From contig JAVYVS010000004.1 of assembly GCA_038727515.1 (NCBI GenBank), forward strand, positions 52,619 to 116,618: a stretch of DNA of 64,000 nt. The letters are read 5' to 3'. This DNA is from Candidatus Methanomethylicia archaeon. GTDB lineage: Archaea > Thermoproteota > Methanomethylicia > Culexarchaeales > Culexarchaeaceae. Made by a program: the position numbers and the translations under genes. Numbering within the stretch: position 1 is the stretch's first letter; the number at the start of each line of letters is the position of its first letter. Below, piece after piece: positions 2,460 to 23,095 of this stretch. The notes beneath the pieces were generated by a model. It saw only the letters and a program-made list of their open reading frames with translations. It was not told where the DNA came from and did not search any database.

Positions 2460-2939
2460 TTATTCATATTGGAATATCATAGATATATAGTCTCCAATTA
2501 AATGCGCTATTACAACTACAATTAATGCTACAACTACATGTTCAATTATCATCCAATAATCCTTTTCCCTTCTACCTATTAGATAGCTTAGGGATGCTAG
2601 TAGAATTACACCCCAAACTACACTCAATATTATTGCCATGGTTAAATCTTCCACTATCATTAATGGGATTATGAAGCTTGAAGCTATTATGAATTTAAAT
2701 ATGAATGTTGTTAATGTTGATATCCATATATCCCTTAAACTATGTATTCTCTCAGATTCTTCGGATATATGTATTCCAAGTGCATCTGAAAATGCATCTG
2801 CAATTGCTATAGTTAGAATTCCACCTAAAACTGCTATTTTTGAGTGTGTTCCAGAGTGTAATCCAACCATAAGTCCAAGTGTTGTTATAACTCCAGATGT
2901 GGATCCAAAGCTTGCTCCAACTTTGAATGAATGTCTCAT
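2460..2939 (-). CDS. VIT1/CCC1-like membrane protein
   Basis: FG..SG..TTLGL, ADA.SDALG..ISEE and about five hydrophobic helices. Confidence 0.65.
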   Translation of the reverse strand: MRHSFKVGASFGSTSGVITTLGLMVGLHSGTHSKIAVLGGILTIAIADAFSDALGIHISEESERIHSLRDIWISTLTTFIFKFIIASSFIIPLMIVEDLTMAIILSVVWGVILLASLSYLIGRREKDYWMIIEHVVVALIVVVIAHLIGDYISMIFQYE

Positions 2940-2950
2940 TAGATATCTTT

Positions 2951-3505
2951 CTAAGATTGATTGTCTCTACCTATAAGTTTTTTCATTAGTTTGTTTAAAT
3001 CTAGGTTTATCTTTAAAGCTTTCTCATTAATATTATTCCAAGTATGCTTTAAAATCTCCTCTAAATGCAAAGTTTTTACACCATATTGAACCCTGTAATT
3101 CATGGATTGAATGTACGTTGCAATTCCATCAGCTAAATCCACAATTTTAGCTTCTAAACTTTCACCCTTAGAATAATCTAAATAGGCTTCCACTAAATCT
3201 CTTTCACCCAAAATCTCTTTAACAATTTCTAAACTAATTTTCGATAATCTTTCCTCATCAAGTCTTTCTTTAATTGGTTTAGGTATATCAGATATTAGAG
3301 CTTCTGGTAAATCATGTATTAAAGCCATCTTTAAAACTTTATATTCATCTAAACATTCAAGTTCTCTACATATCACCATAGCTATAAATGCAACCTTTAA
3401 AGTATGTTCTGCTATATTTTCAGCAATATCATTTGGTATCTTAGCCATGATCCAACCAGTTCTCTTAATCCTACCAAGTCTTTCCAGTACTTCAAATAAA
3501 TCCAT
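2951..3505 (-). CDS. HD-family hydrolase (YfbR/HDDC2-like 5'-deoxynucleotidase)
   Basis: KRTGW, E.IAEH, HDLPE...SDIP and AD motifs. Confidence 0.85.
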   Translation of the reverse strand: MDLFEVLERLGRIKRTGWIMAKIPNDIAENIAEHTLKVAFIAMVICRELECLDEYKVLKMALIHDLPEALISDIPKPIKERLDEERLSKISLEIVKEILGERDLVEAYLDYSKGESLEAKIVDLADGIATYIQSMNYRVQYGVKTLHLEEILKHTWNNINEKALKINLDLNKLMKKLIGRDNQS

Positions 3506-3605
3506 AAATCACTATTTACACTTTGAAGAATAAATAATATTCCTTAACTCTAGAGTTAATGATGTTAAAGATTTACTACTTTAAGTTCATAGGGAACTAT
3601 ACTCT

Positions 3606-4109
3606 TCAATTACCTCTTTTAATTGTTACCTCTAATATTCCATTCCTATACTTCTTCTCCATACTCTTTATATTAATATTTGATGGTAAATCTACTTCTT
3701 TATAGTAGTCTTTGTATTTTGAGTATGCCTTTATAATTAGTTTTCCATCCTTTACATTAACGTTTATATCCTTTTCATCTACTCCAGGTATTTCTGCAAT
3801 CACCTTTATTTCTCCATTTCTATCAATTACTTCTACAAGTGGTTCTTCACTTTCTTCTTCAATATCATCATAAACCTTTCTCTTCTGCTTTATATTTCCA
3901 AATTCTTTCTTTATGATTTTTCCATCTGGACCTATTGTTATACTATATCCATATATGTATGGTCCCCACACTCTTACTCTACTATCATCTGGAAGTATCT
4001 CCTCCTTGAATTCATGATTGAATATATCCATATCCTCTATCTCCCTCATCCTCCTCTCCATTTCCTCTATTATCTTCTTCCAATTCTTTATGAAATCATC
4101 ATAGAACAT
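3606..4109 (-). CDS. hsp20: Archaeal small heat-shock protein Hsp20
   Basis: GPYIYGYSITIGPDGK...EFGN N-terminal signature; alpha-crystallin domain (AEIPGV...NGILEV). Confidence 0.92.
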   Translation of the reverse strand: MFYDDFIKNWKKIIEEMERRMREIEDMDIFNHEFKEEILPDDSRVRVWGPYIYGYSITIGPDGKIIKKEFGNIKQKRKVYDDIEEESEEPLVEVIDRNGEIKVIAEIPGVDEKDINVNVKDGKLIIKAYSKYKDYYKEVDLPSNINIKSMEKKYRNGILEVTIKRGN

Positions 4110-4503
4110 TTATCTCACCTCCTAAATCCTCCATTAATTCCATTAATTTTGTTAAGGCGAGGGTTAATGTTGTGAATATTATTCTTCCATGATTTGAACA
4201 TCTATATCCTCCCTTACCATTTCTCTCTAGTAGTCCAATTGAACTTAATCTTCTAATGTTTTCCCAAATTATCTTTGGATTTGCATCTAGCATTTTCATT
4301 ATTTCTGTAAAACTTACAGGTTTTGGGTATTCATCCATCATCTTCATTAACATCATAATTCTAGTTTCATTGCTTAATGCTTCAAATATCCGTGTTATTT
4401 CTTTACATTTCTTTCTTAGATGATCTATTTCAATAGTTGTAGGTGTTAGTGGAGCTTCCCATATTACCTCTCCATCTTTAACTATTTGTATTTTCAGAGT
4501 CAT
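4099..4503 (-). CDS. ArsR-like winged-helix transcriptional regulator overlapping hsp20
   Basis: FEALSNETRI...HTH...L..IGL.E..G.Y; its 3' end carries the GGAGGTGA SD of hsp20. Confidence 0.75.
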   Translation of the reverse strand: MTLKIQIVKDGEVIWEAPLTPTTIEIDHLRKKCKEITRIFEALSNETRIMMLMKMMDEYPKPVSFTEIMKMLDANPKIIWENIRRLSSIGLLERNGKGGYRCSNHGRIIFTTLTLALTKLMELMEDLGGEINVL

Positions 4504-4518
4504 AACCCTCGCCCTAAA

Positions 4519-4554
4519 TTACCTTTTGGTAATTACCAATTGGTAATATATAAA
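4519..4554 (-). promoter_or_regulatory. TATA box (TTTATATA, minus strand 4554-4547) followed by two abutting TTACC-N4-GGTAA palindromes (4519-4532, 4533-4546)
   Basis: Read directly: ttacc-tttt-ggtaa ttacc-aatt-ggtaa tatataaa. Confidence 0.7.
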
Positions 4555-4556
4555 TC

Positions 4557-5753
4557 TTACGGTAATATTATCTTACCCATTACAACTCTTTCTAATGCTC
4601 CAGTGGCTGAAGGAACATTATTTGGAAATCCACTTATAGTTTCATTTGCCAGTATGATCATTACAAGTGGTTCTTTTGCTTGTGATGGTATTCCATAATC
4701 TTCATGTAAGCTAATCTTTGTTTTTGGATTTAATTCTTTAATCATCTCCATTAAAACTCTATTTCTACTTCCACCTCCACCAATTATGATTTCATCTGGT
4801 TTTTCCGGTAGGTATTTAATGTAGCTTTCAGTTATGGTTTTCGCCGTATAATATGTTGCTGTTGCAATTATATCTTCCCATTTCAAATTCATTTCTCTAG
4901 CTTTTCCAATAATCTTCTTAACATATGATTCTCCAAATTCTTCTCTACCGGTGGTTTTTGGAGGTTTCTTCTTTAGATATGGATGTTTCATCATGTAATT
5001 CAGCAATACCTCATTCACTTTCCCCTTTGCTGCTATTTCTCCATTTAAATCCATGTTGAGTTTTCCATGACTCATCTCTCTAACTATTGCATCTATTATC
5101 ATGTTTCCAGGTCCTGTATCGAAGGCTATTACATCCTTTATCTCTGCATTCCTTGGTATATATGTTACATTGGCTATTCCACCAATATTTTGAATAGCTC
5201 TACAAATATCTATGCTTCTAAATATTATGTAATCTGCATATGCACTTATTGGTGCTCCATTACCACCTGCAGCTACATCTTTATGTCTGAAATCAGCTAT
5301 GGTAATGATCTTTGTTTTATAAGCTATTATTGATGGTTCTCCTATTTGTAGTGTTGATCTAGTTTTATACCCATATATATCTTCAATCTTTGGATTATGG
5401 TATATGGTCTGCCCATGACTTGCTATAAAATCCACATCCCCCCTACTTAAACCAACTTCATCCATTGCTTCCAAAGCTTTCTCTGCAAATATCATTCCTA
5501 AAACATAATTTAATTGGCATATCCTCTTTACATTTCCAGTTTTTGGATTTGTTGATTTCAATATTAATCTACGAATTTCATTATCATATTCAAATGTCTT
5601 ATGGTATAGTATTTTGAATTTTGTATTTATCCAATTACCCTTTAATTTAGCTATTACTATTGATACTCCATCTAATGATGTTCCAGACATTATTCCTAAA
5701 CCTATCTTTTCCTCCTTTGATTTCAATTCAAATAATTTCTCTATGGGGTTCAA
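4557..5753 (-). CDS. anmK: Anhydro-N-acetylmuramic acid kinase
   Basis: GIMSGTSLDG, SHGQTIYH, DFR..D.AAGG.GAP, NIGGIANVT, FDTGPGN, PPKTTGRE and GGGSRN. Confidence 0.95.
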   Translation of the reverse strand: MNPIEKLFELKSKEEKIGLGIMSGTSLDGVSIVIAKLKGNWINTKFKILYHKTFEYDNEIRRLILKSTNPKTGNVKRICQLNYVLGMIFAEKALEAMDEVGLSRGDVDFIASHGQTIYHNPKIEDIYGYKTRSTLQIGEPSIIAYKTKIITIADFRHKDVAAGGNGAPISAYADYIIFRSIDICRAIQNIGGIANVTYIPRNAEIKDVIAFDTGPGNMIIDAIVREMSHGKLNMDLNGEIAAKGKVNEVLLNYMMKHPYLKKKPPKTTGREEFGESYVKKIIGKAREMNLKWEDIIATATYYTAKTITESYIKYLPEKPDEIIIGGGGSRNRVLMEMIKELNPKTKISLHEDYGIPSQAKEPLVMIILANETISGFPNNVPSATGALERVVMGKIILP

Positions 5754-5805
5754 TTTATCTTCAATTCACTACTTATCTCACTTTACATTTAATCCTTCCC
5801 TAAAT

Positions 5806-6204
5806 TTATTCTACTTTTACTTCTCTTCCAATCTTTTTCTTTCGTAATTCTATGGTTAGTAATCCTTCAAAATACTTTGCTTTTGCACTTTCTGGTTCTA
5901 CTGGATCTTCCAATTTAATCTTATACTTATACTCTTCTTTTCTCCCTACTATTTCAACTGATGTTTTAGCTGATATGCTTATTGCATTCTCATTTACATA
6001 TAGTTTTATATCTTCCTTCTTTACCCCTGGAAGTTCTACTGTCACTATATATTTATCATCTTCCTCTTTTATCTGATATCTTTCTGATATTACTCCGTGT
6101 TTATATGCTTTCATCTTTATTATTGGTAGTGGTATGTTTAATCCTCCAATTATCATTTTAATTTCCTTTTCCACTTTTCTATTATCGTTACACATTTGTA
6201 CCAC
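5806..6204 (-). CDS. Second Hsp20/alpha-crystallin family protein
   Basis: ELPGVKKEDI...AKY.EGLLTI; C-terminal VKVE (IXI-type motif); start may be ATG 6195. Confidence 0.85.
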   Translation of the reverse strand: MVQMCNDNRKVEKEIKMIIGGLNIPLPIIKMKAYKHGVISERYQIKEEDDKYIVTVELPGVKKEDIKLYVNENAISISAKTSVEIVGRKEEYKYKIKLEDPVEPESAKAKYFEGLLTIELRKKKIGREVKVE

Positions 6205-6249
6205 AATTAAATTTTAGTCTATTTTTGTATTTAAATTTTATTTTTGTAC

Positions 6250-6702
6250 TTATTCTATGGAAACTTTCCTCCAACCTTTAAGTTTCTCTTCCACTATCTT
6301 CATTTCTCCCTCTAGGAATTTCTTATATTCTTCTAGTTCTTCTACATCTTCTAGTTCTCTTGCTATGCTCATGTATTTCTCTGCTTCTCTAATTGATTTC
6401 TCCATTATGAATGATATATATTTCATTATTGATTTTATTTTTGGCTGTATTAGTTTTGGTATTTTATCTATTGCTTCAAATCCCTTATCAGTTAATTTTA
6501 CACTACCATCAATTTCAAATTCTATATATCCCTTATCTCTAAGTTCTGAGAGTGATGTGTAGAAAGAGCTTTTTGATTCCAATCCAAATTCATACATTTC
6601 TCTAAGTAGTTTTGCAGTCTTCTTTCCTCCACTTTTAAGTTTTAGTAGTATTGCTATTTGATGTGGATTTAATTTATCTTCTCCTACTTTAATTTTAAAC
6701 AT
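6250..6702 (-). CDS. Winged-helix (PadR-like) regulator with C-terminal coiled coil
   Basis: SSFY..L..L..KGYI....LT.KG wHTH pattern; acidic/basic heptad tail. Confidence 0.65.
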   Translation of the reverse strand: MFKIKVGEDKLNPHQIAILLKLKSGGKKTAKLLREMYEFGLESKSSFYTSLSELRDKGYIEFEIDGSVKLTDKGFEAIDKIPKLIQPKIKSIMKYISFIMEKSIREAEKYMSIARELEDVEELEEYKKFLEGEMKIVEEKLKGWRKVSIE

Positions 6703-6708
6703 TCTTCT

Positions 6709-7425
6709 TCACTCTACTGTAAAGTATATTCTCCTTTTATCTTTCCCCTTATTTTGAACTTTTATCAATTTTACTTCTCCTACTTCCATGGTATTCTTTA
6801 CATGTGGTCCACCATCTGCTTGTACATCTAATCCCTCTATTTCCACTATTCTAAGTTCTTCTAATTCTGGTGGCATTCTTTCAGCTAATTTTACTATTCC
6901 AGGTATTTTTAATGCTTCCTCTCTTTTTAGGAAGTATATTTTTACTGGTAGTGCCATTTTAACTGCTTCATTAACTTTTCGAATAGCATCTTCAAATATC
7001 TCTTTACTCATTGATGGTATATTAAAATCCATTTTCGCTTCATCTTCATCCACTTGTCCACCTGTTACAAGAGCATTATAATGATTATACATTACTGCTA
7101 CTAGTATGTGTGCTGCAGTATGTAGTCTCATTAATCTATATCTTCTCTCCCAATTTATTTCACCCTCCACTTCAATTCCAATTTCAACTTTTGGTTCTAT
7201 GTTTAATACATGTATTATATCTGCAGTGGTATGATCTAATTTTACATCTTGAACTTCATATTCTAATCCCATTATCCTAATTTTGCCAGTATCATTGGCT
7301 ACTCCTCCAGTTTGTGGATGGAATATTGTTTGATCTAAAATCAATTCTCTACCATTACAGGCGAGAACTTTAGCTTTAAAAGTTTTTTGATAACTATCGT
7401 ATTGATATAAGTGTTTTGTTGGCAT
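6709..7425 (-). CDS. alaXM: Alanyl-tRNA editing protein AlaX-M
   Basis: LDQTIFHP..GG..D.G, MRLHTAAH, ADGG.HV; start moved to ATG 7425 behind a GGTGA SD. Confidence 0.9.
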   Translation of the reverse strand: MPTKHLYQYDSYQKTFKAKVLACNGRELILDQTIFHPQTGGVANDTGKIRIMGLEYEVQDVKLDHTTADIIHVLNIEPKVEIGIEVEGEINWERRYRLMRLHTAAHILVAVMYNHYNALVTGGQVDEDEAKMDFNIPSMSKEIFEDAIRKVNEAVKMALPVKIYFLKREEALKIPGIVKLAERMPPELEELRIVEIEGLDVQADGGPHVKNTMEVGEVKLIKVQNKGKDKRRIYFTVE

Positions 7426-7522
7426 TTTAATCACCATTAAATCTTCTATACATGTTTTTAAGGGTTTCCATAATACCATAAATTTTTAGGTGTATTTATT
7501 AAATATTTGTTGGTGTTTAACT

Positions 7523-9070
7523 TTGGATTTGGATTTATTGGCTGGTCAAATGATTATGATGGGTTTTGATGGTTTAGAGCTTAATTCTGAAATTATGGAT
7601 GCTTTAAAGAGGATTAAACCTTGTGGTTTAGTCTTTTTCAGAAGGAATATGGCTAATTGGAATCAAGTTAAGAAGCTTATAAGAGATTTACAAAATTATG
7701 CTTCTAGCATTGGACTTCCACCATTAATTATTGCTTTAGATCATGAGGGTGGACCAGTATTTAGGATGGCTAGTCGTTTAACCCCTCTTCCCAGCGCTAT
7801 GGCTTTAGGTGCATCCAATGATCCATCTATGGTTGATTGTATAGCTAGAATTGCAGGTCAAGAACTTAAAGCTTTAGGATTTAATTTGAATTTTGCTCCT
7901 GTAGCTGATCTCAATACTAATCCAAGGAATCCAGTTATAGGTATTAGATCTTTCGGGGATGATCCATTTAAAGTTGCTAATATGGTTTCCAGATATGTTT
8001 CATCTCTTCAATCTACTGGTGTTATGGCTACTGCTAAACATTTTCCAGGTCATGGTGATACATCTGTAGATTCCCATTTAGATCTTCCTATTGTAGATGT
8101 TGATTTAAATGTTTTATTGAATAGAGAGCTTATACCATTTAAAGCTGCTATTGATGCTGGTGTTTCATGTATAATGACTTCCCATGTATGTTTCCCAAGG
8201 GTTGATTCTTCGAATCTTCCAGCAACATTCTCTAAATATCTCTTAAGGGATGTTTTAAGGGGTATGCTTGGTTTTAATGGTGTAATAATTTCTGATGCTC
8301 TTGAAATGAAGGCTATTAGCAGTAGATTTGATGTTGATGATGTAGCTCTTTATGGTTTAAATGCTGGTTTAAATATTCTACTTAGGGGTGGAGATTTAAA
8401 TTATATTTTTGATTTAAAGGATTCAATTTTAAAACTCGTTAAGAGTGGAGGGGTAGATCCAAAACTATTATATGATTCCTATATTAGGATTGAAGCCCTT
8501 AGGAATAAGATTAATTCTTATTCATCTCCCATTGAAGTTTCAATTAAAAATTTGAGGAAGAATAGAATGCTTTCCATGGATGTTTCTCTATCCTCCATAA
8601 CCATTTTGAAAAGTGATTTATTTAGACCATTAAAGGGTTATAATTCTATTGCCATCCTCATTCCAAGGATGCTTCAACGTTTCTTATCTAATTTTAGTTC
8701 TGAAGTTGTCAATTTATTTGTTGGTGAATTTGGGAGTTACATTGATACTTTGGTTATATCATTTTATGATGAAGATGTAAACTTTGATGATTTAATGGAT
8801 ATTGTTTATAATGTGGATGGTGTTGTCTTCTTCACTTATAATGCAATTTTCCATAGGTTTCAATTGGATTTATATGAGAAGATTAAAGATAGGGTTTTAA
8901 TGGTTGTTGCAGCAGGTTCACCTTATGATGCTGAATTAATTGATGGAGATAAACCTATAGCTTTAACCTATGGATTAAATCCAATAGTCTTATCTGCTCT
9001 TGTAGATGTTTTATGTGGTGTTTGTGAAGCTCATGGTATTCTTCCAGTTAAATTGAATTTGAAAAGCTAG
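7523..9070 (+). CDS. nagZ: GH3 beta-N-acetylglucosaminidase (two-domain NagZ, no signal peptide)
   Basis: DHEGG.V.R, NFAPVAD, IRSFG, KHFPGHGDTSVDSH (NagZ Asp-His dyad) and SDALEM; probable TTG start 7523. Confidence 0.92.
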   Translation: MDLDLLAGQMIMMGFDGLELNSEIMDALKRIKPCGLVFFRRNMANWNQVKKLIRDLQNYASSIGLPPLIIALDHEGGPVFRMASRLTPLPSAMALGASNDPSMVDCIARIAGQELKALGFNLNFAPVADLNTNPRNPVIGIRSFGDDPFKVANMVSRYVSSLQSTGVMATAKHFPGHGDTSVDSHLDLPIVDVDLNVLLNRELIPFKAAIDAGVSCIMTSHVCFPRVDSSNLPATFSKYLLRDVLRGMLGFNGVIISDALEMKAISSRFDVDDVALYGLNAGLNILLRGGDLNYIFDLKDSILKLVKSGGVDPKLLYDSYIRIEALRNKINSYSSPIEVSIKNLRKNRMLSMDVSLSSITILKSDLFRPLKGYNSIAILIPRMLQRFLSNFSSEVVNLFVGEFGSYIDTLVISFYDEDVNFDDLMDIVYNVDGVVFFTYNAIFHRFQLDLYEKIKDRVLMVVAAGSPYDAELIDGDKPIALTYGLNPIVLSALVDVLCGVCEAHGILPVKLNLKS

Positions 9071-10218
9071 TATATGTGGTATTTTTCCTTTTCATAAGCA
9101 TATTTCAATAATTCTTCTTCTACTTCATCTACTATTGCCCATGGGTCTTCATCTTCATCTATTGATCTTCTAATTTTACTTGTTCCCGTTAAGATATCCA
9201 TCCAATATTTCCCCTTAACCTTCCTCCATTGGAATTTCTCTGGGTATAGTCTTTTTATTGTACTTATTATTTGTAGTCCAGTTAGGAATGGTCTGAATAA
9301 TCCCCTATCCATCACATATATTTCTACTCCTCCACATAATTTCCCTCTATATTTACCGCTATTTGGTTTGAATGTTAATGGTCTAAATTTAACTCCACTT
9401 AATCCAGTTTTATTTAGTTCTTCTGATAGTTTCTTTGGTTTTATCCATGGTGCTCCAATTACTTGGAATGGTTTTGTAGTTCCCCTCCCCTCAGATATGT
9501 TTGTAGCTTCAATTAAACATGTTCCAATGTATACATGTGCTGTTTCTGGTGTTGGCATATTTGGTGATGGTGGAATCCATGGTAATCCAGTTTGATCAAA
9601 CCATAAGCTTCTACTCCAACCCTCCATGGATACAACTCTTAAATCAGCTTTTAAATGGTATTTCTCATTTAGATATGTAGCTATTTCCCCTATGGTTAAT
9701 CCATATCTAACTGGTATTTCAGCTATTCCAACGAAAGATCTATATTCTCCCTCTAGTATTGGTCCCTCTAATATTTCTCCTGTTATTGGGTTTGGTCTAT
9801 CTAATACTATAATTTTCAATTCATTTTCTCCACATGCTTCTAAACAGTAGTAGAGGGTTGAGATATATGTATACCATCTTGCACCTACATCTTGTAAATC
9901 AAATACTAGTGCTTCTAAATCCTCCATATCTTCTCTTCTTGGTTTATAGTTTAATCCATATAGGCTTTTTATTTCAACTTTATACTCTTCGTCATAATAT
10001 GATGTGGTTATAGGTTTTGTTTCTGTAATTGTAAATCCATGTTCAGGGGTGAATACCCTTTTAACTTGGCATTTCCCAATTCTCCTTGCTTCATCTATTA
10101 TATGTGTGAATTGTGGAGTTACACTTGATTGATTTGCCACTATCCCTATACTTCTACCTCTTAAATCTCCAAAATCTTCTTCTATTAATATTTCCAATCC
10201 AATTTTCACTCTATCCAA
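9067..10218 (-). CDS. namZ: Exo-beta-N-acetylmuramidase NamZ (DUF1343/GH171), no signal peptide
   Basis: PEHG, SLYG, DLQDVGARWYTY, LDRPNP, W.PPSPNMPT and SEGRGTT.PF. Confidence 0.92.
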   Translation of the reverse strand: MDRVKIGLEILIEEDFGDLRGRSIGIVANQSSVTPQFTHIIDEARRIGKCQVKRVFTPEHGFTITETKPITTSYYDEEYKVEIKSLYGLNYKPRREDMEDLEALVFDLQDVGARWYTYISTLYYCLEACGENELKIIVLDRPNPITGEILEGPILEGEYRSFVGIAEIPVRYGLTIGEIATYLNEKYHLKADLRVVSMEGWSRSLWFDQTGLPWIPPSPNMPTPETAHVYIGTCLIEATNISEGRGTTKPFQVIGAPWIKPKKLSEELNKTGLSGVKFRPLTFKPNSGKYRGKLCGGVEIYVMDRGLFRPFLTGLQIISTIKRLYPEKFQWRKVKGKYWMDILTGTSKIRRSIDEDEDPWAIVDEVEEELLKYAYEKEKYHIY

Positions 10219-11152
10219 TTTTCTTCACCTTTGCTATTTCTATAGCTTTTAATGGTATTCCACCAGCTTCTTCCAAGAGTTTTTCAGCTTCTTCTTTGCT
10301 TAAGTTTGTTTTAGCCATTATTATTGCTAATATAACATTACCATTTGCTTCCAATAATTTTTCTTCAGCTTCTTCATATGATACTCCTGCTTCCTCCATT
10401 ATTATCCTTTTAGCTCTTTCCCTAAGTTTATCGCTTACTGGAGTTAGATTTATCATATGTCCACTTTTTACTCTACCAAGTTTTATCATAGCTGTAGTAC
10501 TCATCATTGTTAATATAACCTTTTGTGCTGTTGCTGCCTTCATCCTTGTTGATCCAGTTATAACTTCTGGCCCTGTTTCTGGTGCTATTACTATATCTGC
10601 ATATTTTGTTATTTCACCCTTCCGATTACTTGTTATTGCTATTGTTTTTGCACCTATACTTTTTGCATATTTTAATGCTGATATTACGAAGGGTGTTCTT
10701 CCACTAGCACTTATACCCACAATTACATCTCCACTTTTAATCCTCCTAGCTTTTAATTCTCTTATTGCTGTTTCTTCATCATCTTCAGCTCCTTCTATTG
10801 GTCTAAATATTGCTCCAGGTCCTCCTGCAATTATTGCTTCCACAGTTTCTGGTCCAATATTGAAGGTTGGTAGTAGTTCTGCTGCATCCATTACTGCCAA
10901 TCTACCGCTTGTTCCAGCTCCAATATATATCATCTTCCCCCCATTGGATATGGCTTCAACTATTAATTCTACTGCTTTACATATATTCTCCAATTCTCTT
11001 CCCACAGCTTCCACAGCCTTTTTATCTTCTTCATTTATTATGCGTAGTATCTCTATTGTTGGCATATTCTCTATATCTTGTATACCCTTAATTTTTGATT
11101 CTGTAGGTGTTTCCTCTAATTCTTTAAATATCTTTAATCTATCTTTATACAT
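10211..11152 (-). CDS. murQ: N-acetylmuramic acid 6-phosphate etherase
   Basis: GAGTSGRL..DA.E..PTF, EGAED, GISASGRTPFV and GPEVITGSTRMKA.TAQK. Confidence 0.95.
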   Translation of the reverse strand: MYKDRLKIFKELEETPTESKIKGIQDIENMPTIEILRIINEEDKKAVEAVGRELENICKAVELIVEAISNGGKMIYIGAGTSGRLAVMDAAELLPTFNIGPETVEAIIAGGPGAIFRPIEGAEDDEETAIRELKARRIKSGDVIVGISASGRTPFVISALKYAKSIGAKTIAITSNRKGEITKYADIVIAPETGPEVITGSTRMKAATAQKVILTMMSTTAMIKLGRVKSGHMINLTPVSDKLRERAKRIIMEEAGVSYEEAEEKLLEANGNVILAIIMAKTNLSKEEAEKLLEEAGGIPLKAIEIAKVKKIG

Positions 11153-12101
11153 ATGCCCATTCCTCTATGTTTCTTATGATTTCATTGTTTATTTCTATTC
11201 CCATTTCCCTTAATCCCATTAATATTGTTCCAGCTATCCCTCTATATTTACACTTTACAACTTCTACTTCTGGGTATTCTCCCTCTAATTCTTTCTTTAT
11301 CTTTTCCAATAATCTCTTGGATGTTTTAAATAATCCTCCAAAACATTGTACTTCACACTTCCCATATCCACTTTTCCTTATCACTATTTTCACGATTTTA
11401 GCTAATTCTCTTCCAGCTTCATCTATTATCTCTATTGCTTCTTCATCTCCTTCTTCACATGCTTCCGCTATTTCTTCAGCTATTTTAGCTATTTCGCTTA
11501 TCCCTCTTTGACCATATATTCTTTCTATTATTTGCGTTGGTGATGTTACTTTATATAATTCCATTATCCTCTTGGATAATGGTGTTTGTGGGATTTCTTC
11601 ATCATATCTTCTAAACATTTTGTTTAAAGCCTTTTTAGCTATCCAAAATCCGCTTCCTTCATCTCCAATTAAATATCCCCATCCTCCAGCTCTAATCTTT
11701 CTTCCATCTACTTCTGTGTATGCTATTGATCCTGTTCCACATATTAATACTATTACATTTCCCCTATGTTTTACTGTTTCATATGCTATTTTTGCGTCTG
11801 ATACTATTATTACCCTTTTCGAATATTTATTGTCTATTAGCTTAATTATTTCTTCTCTATTCCTTTCATTTTCTAATCCTGCTGCTCCTATTACGCATAA
11901 TTCTGCTTTTCCATTTATTTTCACATTTTCTAAACTTTCCAATAGATTTCTTGTTGCTTCTTCTAATCCTACACTATTTATGTTTATGCTTCCTGAAACA
12001 TGTCTTTTTATTATTTTCCCATTTACCCATGTTGATACAGCTTCAGTTTTACTTCCTCCACCATCAATTCCAATTATATATTGTTTTTCCAATTTACTCA
12101 T
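11145..12101 (-). CDS. BadF/BadG/BcrA/BcrD-family amino-sugar kinase (MurK-like MurNAc/GlcNAc kinase)
   Basis: GIDGGGSKT, SDA, GTGSI and RAGGWGYLIGDEGSG.WI; overlaps murQ in an operon. Confidence 0.85.
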   Translation of the reverse strand: MSKLEKQYIIGIDGGGSKTEAVSTWVNGKIIKRHVSGSININSVGLEEATRNLLESLENVKINGKAELCVIGAAGLENERNREEIIKLIDNKYSKRVIIVSDAKIAYETVKHRGNVIVLICGTGSIAYTEVDGRKIRAGGWGYLIGDEGSGFWIAKKALNKMFRRYDEEIPQTPLSKRIMELYKVTSPTQIIERIYGQRGISEIAKIAEEIAEACEEGDEEAIEIIDEAGRELAKIVKIVIRKSGYGKCEVQCFGGLFKTSKRLLEKIKKELEGEYPEVEVVKCKYRGIAGTILMGLREMGIEINNEIIRNIEEWAYV

Positions 12102-12196
12102 TAAATTTTATTTGTATTATTTTTAAGTTATTATTTTCGTTTTATTTTGTTTGGAAAGGTTAATATTTTCTTTATTTAAAATTTTATTGGGCGTCT

Positions 12197-12847
12197 ATGA
12201 AAATTATTCCAGATGAGTATGTTGATGAAGTTAAAAATATCCTTAGTGGTTTAAGGGATGATGTTAGAATTCTACTTTTCACTCAGAGGTTTAAGTGTAC
12301 TGGATGTAGGGAGGCTGAAGATCTACTTATGGATTTATCAAGTTTATCTAGTAGGATTGTTTTAGAGAAGTATGTTTATGAGGATTCTAGGGTTAAATTT
12401 AATGAGTATAATGTTACTTATGTTCCTACGATAATTGTTGTTTCAAGGTATACTGGTGGTATGGCTAGATTTCTAGGGGTTCCATTGGGTTATGAATTTT
12501 CAAGTTTATTGGAGGATATCCTTCATGCTTCTACTGGTGAATTTGATTTGCCTAAGTCTATTGTTAGAGAGGTTAGTGGGATAAATTTTGATGTTGATAT
12601 TAAAGTTTTTGTGACTTTAACATGCCCATACTGTCCAGTGGCTGTTTCCAATGTTCATAGTTTCTCTCTAATAAATCCTAAGATTAAGGGTGAAATGATA
12701 GATGCATCTCTATTTCCAAATTTAGCTTTAAAATATTCTGTTTCTGCTGTTCCAAAAACTATTATAAATGATTCTGTGGAGATTGTAGGTGCATTTCCAC
12801 CTGAACTACTCTTAAAGAAGATTTTTGAAGCTGTTAAGTATAAGTAG
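12197..12847 (+). CDS. Protein disulfide oxidoreductase (two thioredoxin folds)
   Basis: CTGC and CPYC motifs; G.P.GYEF.S and SAVP. Confidence 0.88.
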   Translation: MKIIPDEYVDEVKNILSGLRDDVRILLFTQRFKCTGCREAEDLLMDLSSLSSRIVLEKYVYEDSRVKFNEYNVTYVPTIIVVSRYTGGMARFLGVPLGYEFSSLLEDILHASTGEFDLPKSIVREVSGINFDVDIKVFVTLTCPYCPVAVSNVHSFSLINPKIKGEMIDASLFPNLALKYSVSAVPKTIINDSVEIVGAFPPELLLKKIFEAVKYK

Positions 12848-12896
12848 ATTCCACATCTTTATCTATATCCATCTCTAATATTTTATTGGTGATTTA

Positions 12897-14300
12897 TTGG
12901 TTAAGTATGATTTAATTTTGAAGGGTGGATTTGTAGTTGATCCTAAGAATGGATTAGAGGATTATATGGATATTGCTATTTCCAATGGTAAAATAGCTGA
13001 ATTGAGTGATGATATTGATATTAGGAGTGGACGTGAAGTTATAGATGTTTCTGATAGAATAGTGTTTCCAGGGGTTATAGATTCACATACTCATATTGGA
13101 AGGTTTGGACATAAGATGATGGCTAAAGTTGGAGTTATAACTGCTGTAGATATGTCTGCATCCATGGATACATTGATATCGAATTTAAAGGTTTATGGTG
13201 CTGGATTAAATGTTGCAACGGTTACAAATATTAGGAATTATTATCCAAAGGCTTCTGAAATTCTTAGTGATTCTGAGATTAAAGAAGCTGTTGGGAAAGC
13301 TTTATGTGAAGGTGCTCTTGGTATAAAGATTGCTGGTGGTCATAATCCATTTACCCCTGAAACTACTGCTAGAATTATTGATGAATGTAATAGAGCTGGA
13401 TGTTATATTGCTTTTCATGTTGGTACCACTAAGACTGGAAGTGATTTAAATGGTTTTCTTGAAGCTTTAGATCTTGCTGGAGATAATGGTTTACATATAG
13501 CTCATGTTAATAGTTATTGTAGAGGTTTAATTGAAGATCCAGTTTATGAAGCTTTGAAAGCTATTTCAGCTTTAAAGGGTAAAAGGAGAATTGCTTCAGA
13601 ATCATATTTAGCTTTAATTAATGGTACTAGTGGTAGATGTGTAAATAATGTTCCTGTTAGTCGTGTTACTAGGAATTGTCTTAGGATGAAGGGTTATAGT
13701 GAAGATTTTGAAGGTTTAAAGAAGGCTATAATGGATGGATATTGTTATGTTAGAGTGGAGGCTGGGGGTGAATCTATACTTGTAACTGGGGATGAAGGGG
13801 TTAAGTATTGGTTGGAGGCTGGAACTGATATTGGTGTAAGCTTTCCAGTTAATGATCCTGAAGCTCAAATAGTTTTAGCTACAGCTAGAGATGGTGATAG
13901 ATTTATTGTAGATGCAATTAGTACTGATGGTGGTGATATACCTAGAAATGTGCAAGTTGAATATGGTATGCTCTTAGTTAAACTTGGAGCTTTAAGTTTA
14001 AAGGATCTTGCTATTAAATTATCTCTTAATCCAGCTATGATGTTTGGTTTTAAAGATAAGGGGCATTTGGGTGTTGGTGCAGATGCAGATATAACTGTTA
14101 TTGACCCATTTATTGGAAGTGCATGTATGGGTATTTCTGGTGGTAGAATTATTATGGTTGATGGAGTTGCAATTGTCTCTGGTGGCAGGGTTATAACTAC
14201 AGAGTATGGTTTAGAATATGTGAAGCGTAGTGGAGTGGAATATTTGATTGCAGATTTATCTAAGGCTAAGATTTATTCCGGTGAGATATATGGTAGTTAA
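12897..14300 (+). CDS. Amidohydrolase superfamily protein (dihydroorotase-like), substrate unknown
   Basis: PG.IDSHTH, GIK, AFH, AHV, STDGG, NPA...G...KG.L..GADADI. Confidence 0.75.
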   Translation: MVKYDLILKGGFVVDPKNGLEDYMDIAISNGKIAELSDDIDIRSGREVIDVSDRIVFPGVIDSHTHIGRFGHKMMAKVGVITAVDMSASMDTLISNLKVYGAGLNVATVTNIRNYYPKASEILSDSEIKEAVGKALCEGALGIKIAGGHNPFTPETTARIIDECNRAGCYIAFHVGTTKTGSDLNGFLEALDLAGDNGLHIAHVNSYCRGLIEDPVYEALKAISALKGKRRIASESYLALINGTSGRCVNNVPVSRVTRNCLRMKGYSEDFEGLKKAIMDGYCYVRVEAGGESILVTGDEGVKYWLEAGTDIGVSFPVNDPEAQIVLATARDGDRFIVDAISTDGGDIPRNVQVEYGMLLVKLGALSLKDLAIKLSLNPAMMFGFKDKGHLGVGADADITVIDPFIGSACMGISGGRIIMVDGVAIVSGGRVITTEYGLEYVKRSGVEYLIADLSKAKIYSGEIYGS

Positions 14301-14727
14301 TGTATATGTGGAATTGAAATTTATACCTGAAATAGGCTTTATAGCTAAGAATAGTCAAAATCAAGCTGTTCTAATGAGAGCTCCAATAAAGGATCTTCCA
14401 CCTGTAGGTCCAAGTCCAATGGAACTTTTATTGATGGCACTTGCTGGATGTACTGGTTACGATGTAATTTCAATACTTTTAAAGATGAGGCAGAAGATTG
14501 AGGGATTTGAGATTAAGGTTAATGGTGTTAGGAGAGATGAAGATCCAAGGGTTTATGTGAATATTGATTTAAAGTATATTGTTTATGGAGATGTAGATGA
14601 AGATAAACTTAAAGAAGCTATTAGATTATCCGTGGAGAAATACTGTTCTGTTTCAGCTATGCTTAAGAATGGTGGAGTAAACGTTAATGTTTCTCATGAA
14701 GTAATTAAACCTTCAACCCCCAGATAA
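14290..14727 (+). CDS. OsmC family protein
   Basis: GPSPMELLL.ALAGC and KYCSV; start moved to ATG 14290 behind GGTGA. Confidence 0.9.
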   Translation: MVVNVYVELKFIPEIGFIAKNSQNQAVLMRAPIKDLPPVGPSPMELLLMALAGCTGYDVISILLKMRQKIEGFEIKVNGVRRDEDPRVYVNIDLKYIVYGDVDEDKLKEAIRLSVEKYCSVSAMLKNGGVNVNVSHEVIKPSTPR

Positions 14728-14761
14728 ATTTTTAACAAACTTTTTACCACAATTTTCTTGA

Positions 14762-14837
14762 AGCCGGGTGGTGTAGCGGCCAAGCATGGCGGGCTCTGGC
14801 CCCGTCGACGGGAGTTCGAATCTCCCCCCGGCTACCA
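14762..14837 (+). tRNA. tRNA-Gln(CTG), intronless, CCA encoded
   Basis: Acceptor AGCCGGG/CCCGGCT (A1-U72 typical of archaeal tRNA-Gln); anticodon arm GCGGG-CTCTGGC-CCCGT; T arm GGGAG-TTCGAAT-CTCCC; A-CCA end; 76 nt. Confidence 0.95.
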
Positions 14838-15575: not shown

Positions 15576-16964
15576 TCATAGACTTCTAATTTTGTGTAGT
15601 CTATTTCTCTCCATGTATAAATCTATTTTACCATCTCTTGTAATTGTGAATTCCACTGGTTGTCTAACTCCATTAGACCATATATAGAATCTTAAATCCT
15701 CTAAATTATCATTTTCCGGTATTAATGGCATTGAAACATCTATGAATTCATCTTTTTGCTCTATATATAGCATTCCACCCTTATTAACTACGTTTACCCT
15801 TATTACTCCCCCATACCCCTCATATACTCCAGTTAACATATCTAGATTCTTCTGTATCTTTAATGCTGGCACTTCATTTATGCTTCTCCCCATAATTAAT
15901 GCTAGAATTGTATGTGCAATTGTTGTATGTGGGAATCCTGTTGTATTTGAAGCCATTACTATTCCAATCTTTTCCATTGGTATGAATGCTACATATGCTG
16001 TTGAACATCCAGTTGATCCACTATGCGCCACCAATTTTCTTTCAAAGAAGTCTTCTATTATACCCCATCCATAACCATATCCTTCTCTACCATAATATGT
16101 CCTCGGCCTCTCTATGTGTATCTTCTGCATTTCCATTATGTTCTCTGGTTTTGCCAATTCTATATCTCCAAATCTTCCATTATTCATTGAAGCTATTATG
16201 TATCTTGAGAATCCCATAACTGAACTTATCAATCCACCTGCAGCATGAATTAATTTGTCAAAGGGCATTCTAACTTTTATTGGTTTTCCATCTCTACTCT
16301 TCCAGTATGGTGTTATCTTATCTGGGTCTTTCTCAAAATCTTCCTTTAAAAATGTACTTCTATCCATTTTTAATGGTGTTAATATGTTCCTCTTAATATA
16401 TTCATGGTATTCCATTCCACTCAACTTCTCAATTATATCTCCAAGTATAGTGTATCCAGCGTTTAAATAGAAGTATCTTTCACCTGGATCTGCAACTACT
16501 TCTTCTTGAGCATTATTTATGAATCTATAGAAATCCTCCATACTACTCATAGGTATAAATATATCCTTTATTCCAGTTGCCCTCCTCAAACTTATTACTG
16601 CTGTGTTTAACGATGGTACTCCAGATGAATGTGAAAGTAAATGCTTTATCCTTATAGGTTTATCTGGTCTTCCAATTTTTATTGGAGCATACTTATTCAC
16701 TGGATCTTCTAAATCTATCTTCCCCTTCTCCATCAACTGTATTATTGCAAGTGCAGTCATAGATTTTGTACATGATCCAAATCCATATAATGTATTTATT
16801 GTTGCAGGTTTATTTTCTTCTATATCCCTTGAACCAAAGGCATCTGCATATATAACTTCTTCTCCCTTAACTATTGCTATACTTAATCCCGGTGTTTTCG
16901 TTTTCTCCATTATTACTGGTATTTCTTTATCTATATACTCCCTTATTCTCTCTATCTTATTCAT
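15576..16964 (-). CDS. Beta-lactamase-fold serine hydrolase (Pab87/CubicO-like peptidase)
   Basis: SxxK (SCTK), LL.H.SG, YxN (YLN) and HSG; extra C-terminal beta domain. Confidence 0.85.
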   Translation of the reverse strand: MNKIERIREYIDKEIPVIMEKTKTPGLSIAIVKGEEVIYADAFGSRDIEENKPATINTLYGFGSCTKSMTALAIIQLMEKGKIDLEDPVNKYAPIKIGRPDKPIRIKHLLSHSSGVPSLNTAVISLRRATGIKDIFIPMSSMEDFYRFINNAQEEVVADPGERYFYLNAGYTILGDIIEKLSGMEYHEYIKRNILTPLKMDRSTFLKEDFEKDPDKITPYWKSRDGKPIKVRMPFDKLIHAAGGLISSVMGFSRYIIASMNNGRFGDIELAKPENIMEMQKIHIERPRTYYGREGYGYGWGIIEDFFERKLVAHSGSTGCSTAYVAFIPMEKIGIVMASNTTGFPHTTIAHTILALIMGRSINEVPALKIQKNLDMLTGVYEGYGGVIRVNVVNKGGMLYIEQKDEFIDVSMPLIPENDNLEDLRFYIWSNGVRQPVEFTITRDGKIDLYMERNRLHKIRSL

Positions 16965-17047: not shown

Positions 17048-18271
17048 ATGCCCATGCCAATAGACTATTACACTGCTTGTATACCATATAGTTTAACGAA
17101 TCTTGCTTCGCAAATATCTTCTCCAACGCTTATCCGTATAGACATAAACATACCTGTTGTAGATGGAAGGATAATGGAGGATAATATGAGGATAATTGCA
17201 TATGCACATATACTTGAGCTTTTATCTGAGTATGCTGGTCTTGTTGTTGTAGCACATCAAGGAAGACCTGGAGATGAAGATTTTATTCCATTAAAACAAC
17301 ATTGGATTACTTTAAGAAGGCTTTTACCATCAAAGATTGATATAGAATTTATCCCTAAGGAGAAGGTTTTTACTGAAGAGACTAGGGAGAGGATTAAGAA
17401 TCTTAGGGAACGTGAAATACTTTTGCTAGATAATATTAGGATGTTTGAAGAAGAACAAAAGTGGAATCCTGAGAAATCTCAATTTCTAAAATTCTTTAAG
17501 GGTATTATTAAAAGCTGTGTTAATGATGCTATACCAGTTTGGCATAGGGCTCATACAAGTGTTATGGCGCTCCCATATATTGCTAAAACTTGGGTTGGTT
17601 TGAGATCTATGTATGAATTAAAGGCTTTAAGTGAAGTTATGCGTTGCGCCAATGATTGCGCCATTATTATGGGTGGAGCTAAACTTCAGAAAATTCAATA
17701 TTTAACGGCTATATTATCTAAGATGGAAGGTTTTACTGGAGGGCTTCCAGGGCAACTTATTGCTAGAGTTAAAGGTTATGATCTAGGTCCTAGAAACAAC
17801 TCATTTTTAGAAGCTAAAATGTCTAAGGAGGATTTTGAAGCTGCAAAGATTTTAGCTGAAAAATTTAATGTTGCTCATCCAGTGGATTTTGTTGTTTTAG
17901 ATAATGGTGAAATCAAAGAGGTTGCTTTAAAGGATATGGCGAATTGTAATGGGATTATAATGGATATTGGAAGTGAAACAGTTGAGGTATATGCTAGGAA
18001 GCTTCAAGAGAAGATTTATAGAATTAGAGCCGGCCCACTTGGAGTTTATGAAAAGGGGTTCTCCAATGGTATTGAATTAACTAAGCTTATTGCAGGTTTA
18101 GGACTTATATTTCTTGGTGGTGATACTACTGCTGAAATTGTTAAGTATGGTTTAGATAGGATTATATTGAGTACTGGTGGAATGCTTTGTATTAGTGGTG
18201 GAGCATTTATACATGGATTAGCTGGTGAAAATTATCCTTCCGTAGATCTTATTTTAAAGCAAAATAAATAA
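17048..18271 (+). CDS. pgk: Phosphoglycerate kinase (divergent)
   Basis: RIDIN.P, HQGRPG, LLDN.R, VNDA...HRAH.S, GGAK, DIG and GGDT. Confidence 0.8.
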   Translation: MPMPIDYYTACIPYSLTNLASQISSPTLIRIDINIPVVDGRIMEDNMRIIAYAHILELLSEYAGLVVVAHQGRPGDEDFIPLKQHWITLRRLLPSKIDIEFIPKEKVFTEETRERIKNLREREILLLDNIRMFEEEQKWNPEKSQFLKFFKGIIKSCVNDAIPVWHRAHTSVMALPYIAKTWVGLRSMYELKALSEVMRCANDCAIIMGGAKLQKIQYLTAILSKMEGFTGGLPGQLIARVKGYDLGPRNNSFLEAKMSKEDFEAAKILAEKFNVAHPVDFVVLDNGEIKEVALKDMANCNGIIMDIGSETVEVYARKLQEKIYRIRAGPLGVYEKGFSNGIELTKLIAGLGLIFLGGDTTAEIVKYGLDRIILSTGGMLCISGGAFIHGLAGENYPSVDLILKQNK

Positions 18272-18286
18272 AAATTAAATTTTTAT

Positions 18287-19807
18287 TTATATTCCCTCTT
18301 TAAATCTCCTATACGTATTGTAATCCACATATATTAGGTATGGATTACTACTCTGCCATTCAATATTGAATTTTTCAAGTCTTTTACGTTTCTCCAATAT
18401 TTTTGGGGTTACTGTTATTAGATAGGCATCGCTTCCAGCTCCAGAACCGAAGCTTGTTAGAAGTATCTTCTCATATGGTTTCGCTATTTCTAGTACTGCT
18501 GCAAGTCCAGCTGGACTTGATCCTGAATATAGATTTCCAAATTTTGTCACCTTTAGTGATGGTAGACATTGTTCATCTTTAAATCCAAGTCTTCTAGCAG
18601 CTCTAATTGGGAATTTAGCATTTGGTTGATGTGGTACAAAGTAGTTTATGTCTTTTGCTGTTAAATTCATCTTATCCATTAGTTTCTTTGCAGCTTTTAT
18701 TATATGTTTGAAGTATGCTGGTTCCCCTGTGAATCTTCCTCCATGAAGTGGATATCTTTGTCCATCTCTCCTCCAAAAGTCTGGTGTATCTGATGTTGAT
18801 GAATACCATCCCTCTATTTCTGCTATTACATCCATATTTCCAATTATGTATGCTGCTGCACCATATCCAACAAAGTAGTCTAATTCTCCTCCAGGCTGCC
18901 CTCTTGGCGCTGCTTGTGAATTATCTGTTCCTATAACCATTGTGAAGTATTCTTCTCCTTTTTCAGCCATGTATTTTGATAATGCAATTGCATCTTTAAA
19001 CATGCTTGTAGCTGCTTTACATGCAAATTCAGTGTCTATGGCATCTATCCCTTTAACTCCATCTCCAAGATCTTCCCCTAAATCTAATACTTGAGCTACC
19101 TTTGATGCTATTGGTTTTACTGAATATGGATTTGATTCTGTTCCAACATATATCTTCTTTATCTTTTCACCATGTAATGCTGATTGTATTAATGCTAGTT
19201 TTCCAGCTTCTACAGCTGCTGTTATTGAATCTTCATCTATAAATGGAACTGATCTCTCCATATCTCCCTCTCTTATTCTGAATCTTGATGTGTATATTGC
19301 ATATCCAACTATTCCAGGTTTCTCTGATATTTCCTTTGGTTCTTTTGTTTCATATGGTATGTATGGGTAGTATTCATCTGCAAATGTGAAGGTTAATGAT
19401 GTTGTGGGAATTATTTCTTGTGGTTCTGATGCATATCTCCTCCTAAATCTAAAGACTACTTTTCTACCTTCATAAATTTCTGGTTTGAATTCATCTCCAC
19501 TATTTAATATGTGGTCTGTAAGTCTTGCTGGAACCTTTATATCCCCTTCTTTAAGTGTTACTATTCCATAAATGTATGGTTGTAGTGGTTTGAATCTATT
19601 TGTAGCTTCATTTATTATTGTGCATACCTCTAGTATTCCCTCACTGTATATGTAGCTTGTTTCCATCATTTTCCCAATACTTTTCCTACCACATTTAGTA
19701 CAGTAGTATCTTGGTTTAAAGTATCTCTTTCCACATATTGGACATATGCTTCCACGTAATCTATCTGATATATAGCTTACCCTTCTTTCAATTGGTTCTG
19801 AACTCAT
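18287..19807 (-). CDS. HMG-CoA synthase with N-terminal DUF35 (Zn-ribbon + OB-fold) fusion
   Basis: N-terminal CxxC...CxxC and PY..G.V...RL.D; synthase motifs GTESNPY..KP, FACK, DFWRR, HQPN and GN.YSGS; start ATG 19807 overlaps thiolase stop (ATGA). Confidence 0.9.
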   Translation of the reverse strand: MSSEPIERRVSYISDRLRGSICPICGKRYFKPRYYCTKCGRKSIGKMMETSYIYSEGILEVCTIINEATNRFKPLQPYIYGIVTLKEGDIKVPARLTDHILNSGDEFKPEIYEGRKVVFRFRRRYASEPQEIIPTTSLTFTFADEYYPYIPYETKEPKEISEKPGIVGYAIYTSRFRIREGDMERSVPFIDEDSITAAVEAGKLALIQSALHGEKIKKIYVGTESNPYSVKPIASKVAQVLDLGEDLGDGVKGIDAIDTEFACKAATSMFKDAIALSKYMAEKGEEYFTMVIGTDNSQAAPRGQPGGELDYFVGYGAAAYIIGNMDVIAEIEGWYSSTSDTPDFWRRDGQRYPLHGGRFTGEPAYFKHIIKAAKKLMDKMNLTAKDINYFVPHQPNAKFPIRAARRLGFKDEQCLPSLKVTKFGNLYSGSSPAGLAAVLEIAKPYEKILLTSFGSGAGSDAYLITVTPKILEKRKRLEKFNIEWQSSNPYLIYVDYNTYRRFKEGI

Positions 19808-23044: not shown

Positions 23045-23095
23045 TTGAAGTGAAAATTATATGTACATTTTTAGATATATTTGTGGTGGATTAGT

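Follow-up and report, generated by a model that had tools for sequence, protein, structure and literature searches.

The window analyzed here, a 64,000-nt contig stretch of a hot-spring Candidatus Methanomethylicia archaeon from the order Culexarchaeales (assembly GCA_038727515.1; genome G000), carries five genes of the anmK, nagZ, namZ, murQ, and BadF-type sugar kinase families between positions 4557 and 12101 (window coordinates are used unless a contig or locus is named). Together with genes elsewhere in the genome, they are best read as a pathway for the cytoplasmic salvage of soluble bacterial peptidoglycan fragments that was inherited from the ancestor of the Culexarchaeales, a reading given a probability of about 0.8. 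Every activity in this pathway, as well as its substrate, uptake, and flux, is what we infer from observed genes, motifs, and conservation, and from observed absences in hidden Markov model (HMM) and tblastn searches. The gene set is real and conserved and the pathway probably functional, and as far as could be found it is undescribed in archaea. The G000 assembly consists of 12 contigs and is 93.6% complete with an estimated contamination of 2.9%. It was compared with an order panel of 12 Culexarchaeales genomes including G000, which fall into three families (f1, f2, and f3), an outgroup panel of 29 other genomes of the same class, and a phylum panel of 401 Thermoproteota genomes. G005 is from the same family as G000, G009 is from the same order, and L301 is a locus of a congener (JGI 3300005801).

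In the proposed pathway, small muropeptides or disaccharides would enter by a transporter, after which NagZ would strip terminal N-acetylglucosamine (GlcNAc) and NamZ terminal N-acetylmuramic acid (MurNAc). AnmK would convert 1,6-anhydro-MurNAc to MurNAc-6P, the BadF kinase would phosphorylate GlcNAc and probably MurNAc too, and MurQ would cleave the resulting MurNAc-6P to yield D-lactate and GlcNAc-6P. Two proteins encoded outside the window would take these products further: a NagB-PIG-L protein, releasing acetate and ammonia and leaving fructose-6P, and a GlcD-type dehydrogenase, converting D-lactate to pyruvate. Stem peptides would be trimmed by Pab87 and DppA, and diaminopimelate (DAP) would become lysine via DapF and LysA. 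The hexose would probably spare gluconeogenesis, giving pentoses through the reverse ribulose monophosphate (RuMP) pathway and UDP-GlcNAc through GlmM and GlmU, while lactate and amino acids could yield energy.

All five open reading frames are intact. The anmK gene (4557-5753, minus strand, 398 aa) scored 322 bits against Pfam AnmK and passed two of 14 AnmK models, NF007148 (460/387; such pairs give bits obtained/curated NCBIfam cut-off) and NF007142 (441/435), with R156, D212 (the catalytic Asp in FDxGP), and E361 present. The signals on its specificity are divided: the best whole-sequence scores in the PDB were to fungal levoglucosan kinases, whereas the local motifs QIGEP and DFRHKD match the AnmK pattern (QIG[DN]P, DFRR[KR]D) rather than that of levoglucosan kinases and, together with gene context, point to anhydro-MurNAc. 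The nagZ gene (7490-9070, plus strand) encodes a two-domain GH3 beta-N-acetylglucosaminidase that passed the beta-N-acetylhexosaminidase model NF003740 (216/207) and matched PDB entry 6k5j (E 2e-82). It carries the motif KHFPGHG..DSH at residues 183-196 (D194/H196) and the Asp nucleophile D269, and the loop KH(F/I)PG(H/L)G-x4-D(S/T)H plus the nucleophile was seen in each of 10 archaeal sequences examined. An alignment of orthologous DNA suggests that the true start of nagZ is a TTG near 7523.

The namZ gene (9067-10218, minus strand, 383 aa) encodes a member of the exo-beta-N-acetylmuramidase family, with 254 bits for NamZ_N, 182 bits for NamZ_C, and conserved E59 and R245. The PEHG motif that includes E59 was found in 33 of 34 archaeal NamZ sequences, and the two residues presumably correspond to Glu92 and Arg279 of Bacillus subtilis (PMC8054146), to which they were mapped by motif and not by direct alignment. 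The product of murQ (10211-11152, minus strand, 313 aa), a predicted MurNAc-6-phosphate etherase, passed TIGR00274 (330/302), NF009222 (347/255), and the NF003915 cut-off, and matched PDB entry 4lzj (E 6e-77). Aligned to 4lzj, its glutamates E92 and E123, 31 residues apart, were invariant in 10 homologues; the catalytic pair of the Escherichia coli enzyme we take to be E83 and E114. The BadF/ASKHA sugar kinase (11145-12101, minus strand, 318 aa) is MurK/NagK-like. Its best PDB match was the MurNAc/GlcNAc kinase 8zo3 (E 3e-35), followed by the Sulfolobus tokodaii hexokinase (E 6e-30); it is thus closely related to a broad-range hexokinase too, and it fell below the NagK_SO3507 cut-off. It includes the motifs DGGGSKT, D103, GTGS, and a GGWG loop. 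The residue before the catalytic Asp is Ser, where the Sulfolobus enzyme has a His that blocks lactyl binding. The Ser-Asp pair and the GGWG loop are compatible with room for the lactyl group, for which the proposed rule is that no bulky or polar residue precedes the catalytic Asp or occupies the S133-P134-L135 patch; since clostridial MurK itself carries Asn before the Asp, this rule is not diagnostic.

The kinase, murQ, and namZ genes are consecutive on the minus strand with overlaps of 8 nt each, the kinase being the first gene of the unit, and nagZ converges on namZ so that their stop codons overlap by 4 nt. The five salvage genes do not form a single operon, as anmK comes after a minus-strand block of alaXM, a winged-helix gene, and hsp20 (5806-7479; AlaXM passed NF040865) that separates it from nagZ. 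This block lies within the cluster in families f1 and f2 and is missing from the cluster in f3, so its three genes are probably passengers. These open reading frames, cut-offs, and motifs agree with an earlier sequence-only reading of the stretch, which had placed five intact genes with catalytic motifs in 7.5 kb of an archaeal contig. The HMM, phylogeny, and synteny checks proposed in that reading were run, confirming the families and recovering order-level clades and synteny in three families.

Within the order, murQ was found in 10 of 12 genomes, anmK in 11, and namZ in 10, with gaps only in genomes that are 45% and 57% complete, and none of the three occurred in the outgroup panel of 29. 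Synteny of the cluster extends to all three families. Among named organisms, the murQ loci nearest to that of G000 were in Ca. Culexarchaeum nevadense (79%) and Ca. Culexmicrobium cathedralense (65%), which by coordinates and identity correspond to G005 and G009, so G000 is a member of the Culexarchaeum family. The dN/dS ratio against the congener, a rough count, was 0.10-0.18, as under purifying selection. The order sequences formed a clade (starred) in the MurQ, AnmK, and NamZ trees, with SH-aLRT values of 97, 99, and 99, respectively, which indicates that the cluster was probably inherited from the Culexarchaeales ancestor. The neighbors of this clade were other Thermoproteota, the named ones being Thermoproteales and Thermofilaceae bins.

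Across the 401 Thermoproteota genomes, murQ was carried by 37, anmK by 34, and namZ by 41, while murQ and namZ occurred together in 35 and all three genes in 26; these counts are descriptive only, as kin are not independent. A single archaeal MurQ clade was not rejected by the approximately unbiased test (p 0.86). However, the constrained tree outscored the quick free tree, so the deep branching order is not reliable, and no lineage is put forward as the donor. In the AnmK and NamZ trees, the archaeal sequences fell into several groups. The complete genome G092 (one contig of 2,077,567 bp) encodes AnmK, NamZ, LysA, and a beta-lactamase-fold protein without MurQ (L294:9630-10775, 17394-18479; L295:7832-9750), and its namZ comes after a SIS_2 sugar-isomerase gene that might be a MurQ replacement.

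The five-gene set had been described in the sequence-only reading as a combination of parts characterised in different bacteria. The new mosaic that this suggests does not hold, because in Ca. Fermentithermobacillus, a thermophilic member of the Bacillota, all five already follow one another at a single locus (namZ, kinase, a murQ with an amiE-like domain fused to it, nagZ, and anmK), with dppA nearby. The set is therefore a bacterial module rather than a new archaeal mosaic; what is novel is that hosts for which no murein synthesis is known have kept it over the long term.

Independent support for peptidoglycan salvage is provided by an orphan LysA. In G000, lysA (C1:550566-551846; 458 bits against a cut-off of 298) abuts the D-aminopeptidase gene dppA, an adjacency seen by coordinates in seven genomes. 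LysA passed its cut-off in 11 of 12 order genomes, DppA occurred in 10 of 12, and both were found in 0 of the 29 outgroup genomes. DapB (DapB_C) was not found in G000 or in 10 of its 11 order relatives, only G009 having it. Ask, Asd (a partial query), and DapB from the G009 operon had no tblastn match in G000, an absence that at 93.6% completeness is not proven. DapF was found in G000, and a DapA-family protein barely passed its cut-off. Because no route for making DAP was found, LysA in G000 would need DAP from outside, and peptidoglycan is the main outside source. In the phylum, lysA was present in 25 of the 45 genomes that have at least one pathway gene and in 51 of the 356 that have none, a comparison confounded by kinship and by real DAP synthesis. 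The DapB contig of G009 (L290, G009:C10, 7.3 kb) holds a full DAP operon of asd, dapA, dapB, ask, lysA, dapF, and an aminotransferase gene; as G009 has 8% contamination, this contig may be foreign.

Two further genes of the window may act on peptides. An orthologue of the Pab87/CubicO D-stereospecific peptidase (15576-16964, minus strand) matched PDB entry 2qmi (E 4e-98) including its octamerisation domain, and its neighborhood is conserved in G003, G004, and L301. Pab87 of Pyrococcus abyssi removes D-Ala from muropeptides (PMC2651629), which makes the orthologue a candidate stem-peptide trimmer. A DUF8155 protein (21078-21965, plus strand) has an N-terminal M23 metallopeptidase fold, with its His/Asp and HxH zinc-site residues (H33, D40, H93, H126, and H128) invariant in 67 homologues. 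Its structure model (pLDDT 95) aligned to EnpA in VIA-align with a Z of 12.0 and an rmsd of 2.7 over 117 residues, and the top 26 alignment rows were M23-fold or near. The protein is a candidate cross-link endopeptidase, as a lead only. Foldseek matches of the same model to neurotoxin binding domains (TM ~0.13, rmsd ~19) were discarded as noise. No member of the L-Ala-D/L-Glu epimerase family was found in G000. A second Pab87 paralogue of G000 (C6:19144-22958; L246) lies 1.7 kb from an Asp/Glu-type amino-acid racemase gene, and a second dppA (C1:445064-445927) lies beside an alanine-dehydrogenase-like gene. In another Thermoproteota locus (L019:5367-8977), nagZ and lysA share a cluster that faces a Peptidase_C39-like gene; its product is probably secreted and could be an extracellular wall peptidase, and no homologue of it was found in G000.

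Downstream of MurQ, the deamination step is assigned to a fusion protein of NagB and PIG-L deacetylase domains (C1:146737-148611 of G000), which passed NF002557 and TIGR00502. The fusion gene is intact in G003 and G004 and in pieces in G005 and G006; a search for a stand-alone NagB-II in G000 recovered only GlmS and other SIS proteins. Because PIG-L genes adjoin namZ or murQ in other archaea, the PIG-L proteins are suggested to be an archaeal substitute for NagA. Such neighbors, in the form of a stand-alone PIG-L deacetylase gene plus a GNAT gene, were seen in Thermofilaceae, family f15, and a Bathyarchaeia bin (L020:9333-12188; L297:5273-10109; L040:7404-10411). A GlcD-family dehydrogenase gene lies at C3:96858-98255 of G000. 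For comparison, 72 bacterial murQ loci included NagB homologues in 20 and GlcD homologues in seven. G000 also encodes two GlmM enzymes and an archaeal GlmU, as well as the gluconeogenic fructose-bisphosphate aldolase/phosphatase.

Several observations weigh against the salvage reading. On the sugar side, the NagB-PIG-L fusion was not found in family f3, a classical NagA had no match near the cut-off in G000, the PIG-L domain is only a putative GlcNAc-6P deacetylase, and GlcD scored below its equivalog cut-off. The congener anmK is interrupted by an insertion element, so that the anhydro branch is dispensable at least in the short term. This IS607-like element (L301:15410-18334; L302:6311-6583) cuts the gene at 90 codons and carries a resolvase and a TnpB-like frame, the latter apparently broken by a LAGLIDADG gene. 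Regarding uptake, no importer was identified in G000, where CUT2 and SSS transporters were not searched by HMM; SBP_bac_5 had no match, and the sole SBP_bac_8 protein sits with a permease of what was read as the iron/thiamine type. An AmiE orthologue was likewise not found in G000, only Pab87 paralogues of 25-30%, and neither was Amidase_3, Amidase_2 not having been searched by HMM, although B. subtilis digests the wall efficiently only with AmiE, NagZ, and NamZ together (PMC8054146). Lastly, one sediment metatranscriptome gave short, low-depth contigs with parts of nagZ, namZ, and the kinase gene, one of them with a joint, and was not used for expression, as assembled contigs are no evidence of transcription.

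Given the missing AmiE orthologue and Amidase_3, G000 may live mostly on sugars that carry no peptide, or one of its proteins may be an amidase not recognised as such. One Amidase_3 match was seen on a small contig of G003, and an AmiE/PBP4B-like gene lies inside the cluster in G009 and G010, the only such cases in the order, and in three other Thermoproteota loci. A candidate D-peptide uptake unit is formed by adjacent genes for an OPT-family transporter, a D-aminoacylase-like amidohydrolase, and an M29 aminopeptidase (C1:488533-493232; L255:3534-8233), and several MFS proteins are also importer candidates. Additionally, a four-gene membrane-protein cassette occurs in several paralogous copies (approximately C1 158-160k, 201.5-204.5k, 350-353k, and 631.8-634k, and C2 286-288k), some beside peptidases or dapF, and could be an importer. 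As judged by an N-terminal hydropathy scan rather than SignalP, all five G000 enzymes are free of signal peptides and look cytoplasmic; the N-termini of NagZ and NamZ are not hydrophobic in G000, nor are those of their orthologues. With no signal peptides and neither an importer nor an AmiE orthologue found, the five genes alone, so far as their sequences tell, cannot attack a wall. The sequence-only reading had proposed the salvage of wall debris rather than the recycling of an own wall, and this part stands through order-wide conservation, purifying selection, the NagB fusion, and the peptide arm with its orphan LysA; the five genes on which it was based are insufficient for it.

Among alternative explanations, the one with virtually no probability is that the locus is an assembly chimera or contamination, or that a bacterium recently donated genes that are now decaying. 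In its favor are the bacterial type of the genes and a 12-contig assembly with some estimated contamination, yet the window also encodes RadA, TopoVI-B, GatE, PCNA, and aIF2-alpha, each above its family cut-off, identifying the contig as archaeal. GC content is flat at 30-37% across the window, and the codon scores and third-position GC of anmK, nagZ, namZ, and the kinase gene are within the genome range (murQ was not scored). Contigs from three independent hot-spring metagenome studies covered 30 of 30 bins of the region, with single independent contigs spanning 2900-5853, 5882-11318, and 11320-14790 and thereby bridging archaeal and murein genes. The same gene order recurs in G003, G004, G005, G006, and L301, the last from other samples. 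With archaeal nearest relatives and purifying selection added, this explanation, including the chimeric join with a bacterial contig that would have undone the sequence-only reading, is excluded and counted as already refuted. It is also improbable that the enzymes have come to act on some other substrate, for instance levoglucosan, chitin-type oligosaccharides, or the N-glycans of archaea, with MurNAc as an incidental one. The levoglucosan kinase scores of AnmK and the proximity of the kinase to broad-range hexokinase favor such a drift, and GH3 and NagK-type kinases accept GlcNAc whatever its source. Nevertheless, MurQ and NamZ, both of which act on the lactyl ether, are retained together in the 35 genomes noted above, and to our knowledge this ether is essentially confined to peptidoglycan. 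The orphan LysA and the D-peptidases indicate the same polymer, and the local AnmK motifs follow AnmK.

Slightly more improbable still is that the organism actively preys on bacteria and the cluster processes the spoils. The M23-fold protein, whose zinc residues are intact, is encoded 9 kb from the cluster, and the killing of bacteria by means of peptidoglycan hydrolases has been described in other archaea (PMC12352652). Against this, the five enzymes have no signal peptide and none is apparent in the M23-fold protein, Amidase_3 was not found, and no obvious secreted wall hydrolase was seen among 57 predicted exported proteins, read by eye only. A different flux with the same substrate, in which the hexose mainly feeds an energy pathway of the Embden-Meyerhof type through a PfkB-type or unrecognised phosphofructokinase, is unlikely. 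NagB-PIG-L would direct flux to fructose-6P, G000 has four PfkB-family proteins, and PGK is encoded nearby. However, at least one of the PfkB matches resembles a ThiD fusion by sequence, the aldolase/phosphatase is gluconeogenic, and neither PfkA-type (PF00365) nor ADP-dependent (PF04587) phosphofructokinases gave anything over cut-off in five order genomes. Similarly, Kohtz et al. (10.1101/2022.04.06.487207) reported no phosphofructokinase and routed fructose-6P into the RuMP pathway. For salvage as proposed here, the lack of a canonical phosphofructokinase match and of the NagB fusion in f3 points to biosynthesis rather than glycolysis: the main use of the hexose is probably to relieve gluconeogenesis and provide UDP-GlcNAc, with lactate and amino acids available for energy metabolism. 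Hence, of the "catabolic" label given in the sequence-only reading, the salvage of wall sugars is supported, but much of the hexose is probably used biosynthetically. A threonine dehydrogenase gene with a glycine C-acetyltransferase-like partner and a full glycine cleavage system (21998-24277, 26746-29682, and 47095-48625, read by eye) are consistent with amino-acid catabolism.

Beyond the salvage genes, a metal-dependent amidohydrolase gene (12897-14300, plus strand), of which only terminal stretches match known families, adjoins the cluster in f1 and f2, with syntenic orthologues 67-87% identical. A common operator upstream of the kinase gene, nagZ, and anmK was sought and rejected, as the alignments gave AT-rich, promoter-like blocks without a shared motif. 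The window also includes a tRNA-Gln(CTG) gene (14762-14837) between osmC and a kinase-like membrane protein gene, and an HMG-CoA synthase gene (18287-19816, read by eye) with an N-terminal DUF35-like zinc-ribbon/OB fusion beside a thiolase gene. Elsewhere in G000 (C1:129784-131623), repeated short peptide motifs in spurious open reading frames suggest a CRISPR array.

Much of the dead matter left by microbes is peptidoglycan, and feeding on bacterial walls by archaea was proposed for Pab87 in 2009. The chemistry itself is already known from bacteria; what the locus supplies are the lactyl-ether-dependent enzymes MurQ, NamZ, and AnmK, which are directly assayable and possibly thermostable, together with marker genes for trait surveys. 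It also suggests a selective substrate for cultivating Culexarchaeia. A broader and more tentative reading, held at somewhat less than even odds, is that salvage is an old and widespread archaeal lifestyle, part of which is carried by about a tenth of the sampled Thermoproteota species, and that the Culexarchaeales are wall-debris specialists that would take apart the glycan as well as the stem peptide inside the cytoplasm and, having no lysine synthesis of their own, depend on bacterial DAP for lysine. If so, they could be enriched on purified sacculi.

Thermoproteota are not known to make murein. In a literature search that covered few subscription journals, no published account of an archaeal MurQ/AnmK/NamZ pathway was found, in line with the sequence-only reading, which knew of no characterised pathway of this kind. 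The founding Culexarchaeia paper does not mention peptidoglycan or muramic acid, and Strock et al. (2025; PMC12352652) do not mention MurNAc or recycling and leave scavenging open. The latter study and the Pab87 work (PMC2651629) each suggest bacterial wall as a possible food of archaea, but they cover peptide trimming and lytic hydrolases only.

Compared with known systems, the archaeal pathway would work like the bacterial MurNAc salvage routes but falls outside the B. subtilis operon type in having no secretion, phosphotransferase system (PTS), or AmiE. It shares NagZ, NamZ, and MurQ with conserved motifs with the B. subtilis murQ-murR-murP-amiE-nagZ-namZ operon (PMC8054146), and some archaeal relatives have an AmiE/PBP4B-like gene in the cluster. 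In contrast to the secreted NagZ and NamZ of B. subtilis, the G000 hydrolases have no signal peptides; MurP (PTS) and MurR are not in the archaeal cluster, the rest of the genome not having been searched for them; archaeal kinases replace PTS phosphorylation; no AmiE orthologue was found in G000; and the host is not known to make murein. The MurK route of Clostridium acetobutylicum and Tannerella forsythia (PMC10465942; PDB 8zo3) likewise has a BadF/ASKHA kinase beside murQ, with a small residue before the catalytic Asp and a GGWG loop, but the similarity is moderate (E 3e-35) and T. forsythia salvages MurNAc for its own wall. The locus of Ca. Fermentithermobacillus carboniphilus (L036) resembles the archaeal set in its run of namZ, kinase, murQ, nagZ, and anmK and in a dppA 52% identical to that of G000, whereas its murQ carries the AmiE-like fusion, its genes are all co-oriented, and it is not the tree sister of the G000 sequences, so it is not shown to be the donor. 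The recycling route of E. coli runs through AnmK, MurQ, NagA, and NagB. The archaeon shares the AnmK and MurQ steps and the downstream NagB, but in place of NagA it has PIG-L fused to NagB (PRK02122 type), and its substrate must be a foreign wall.

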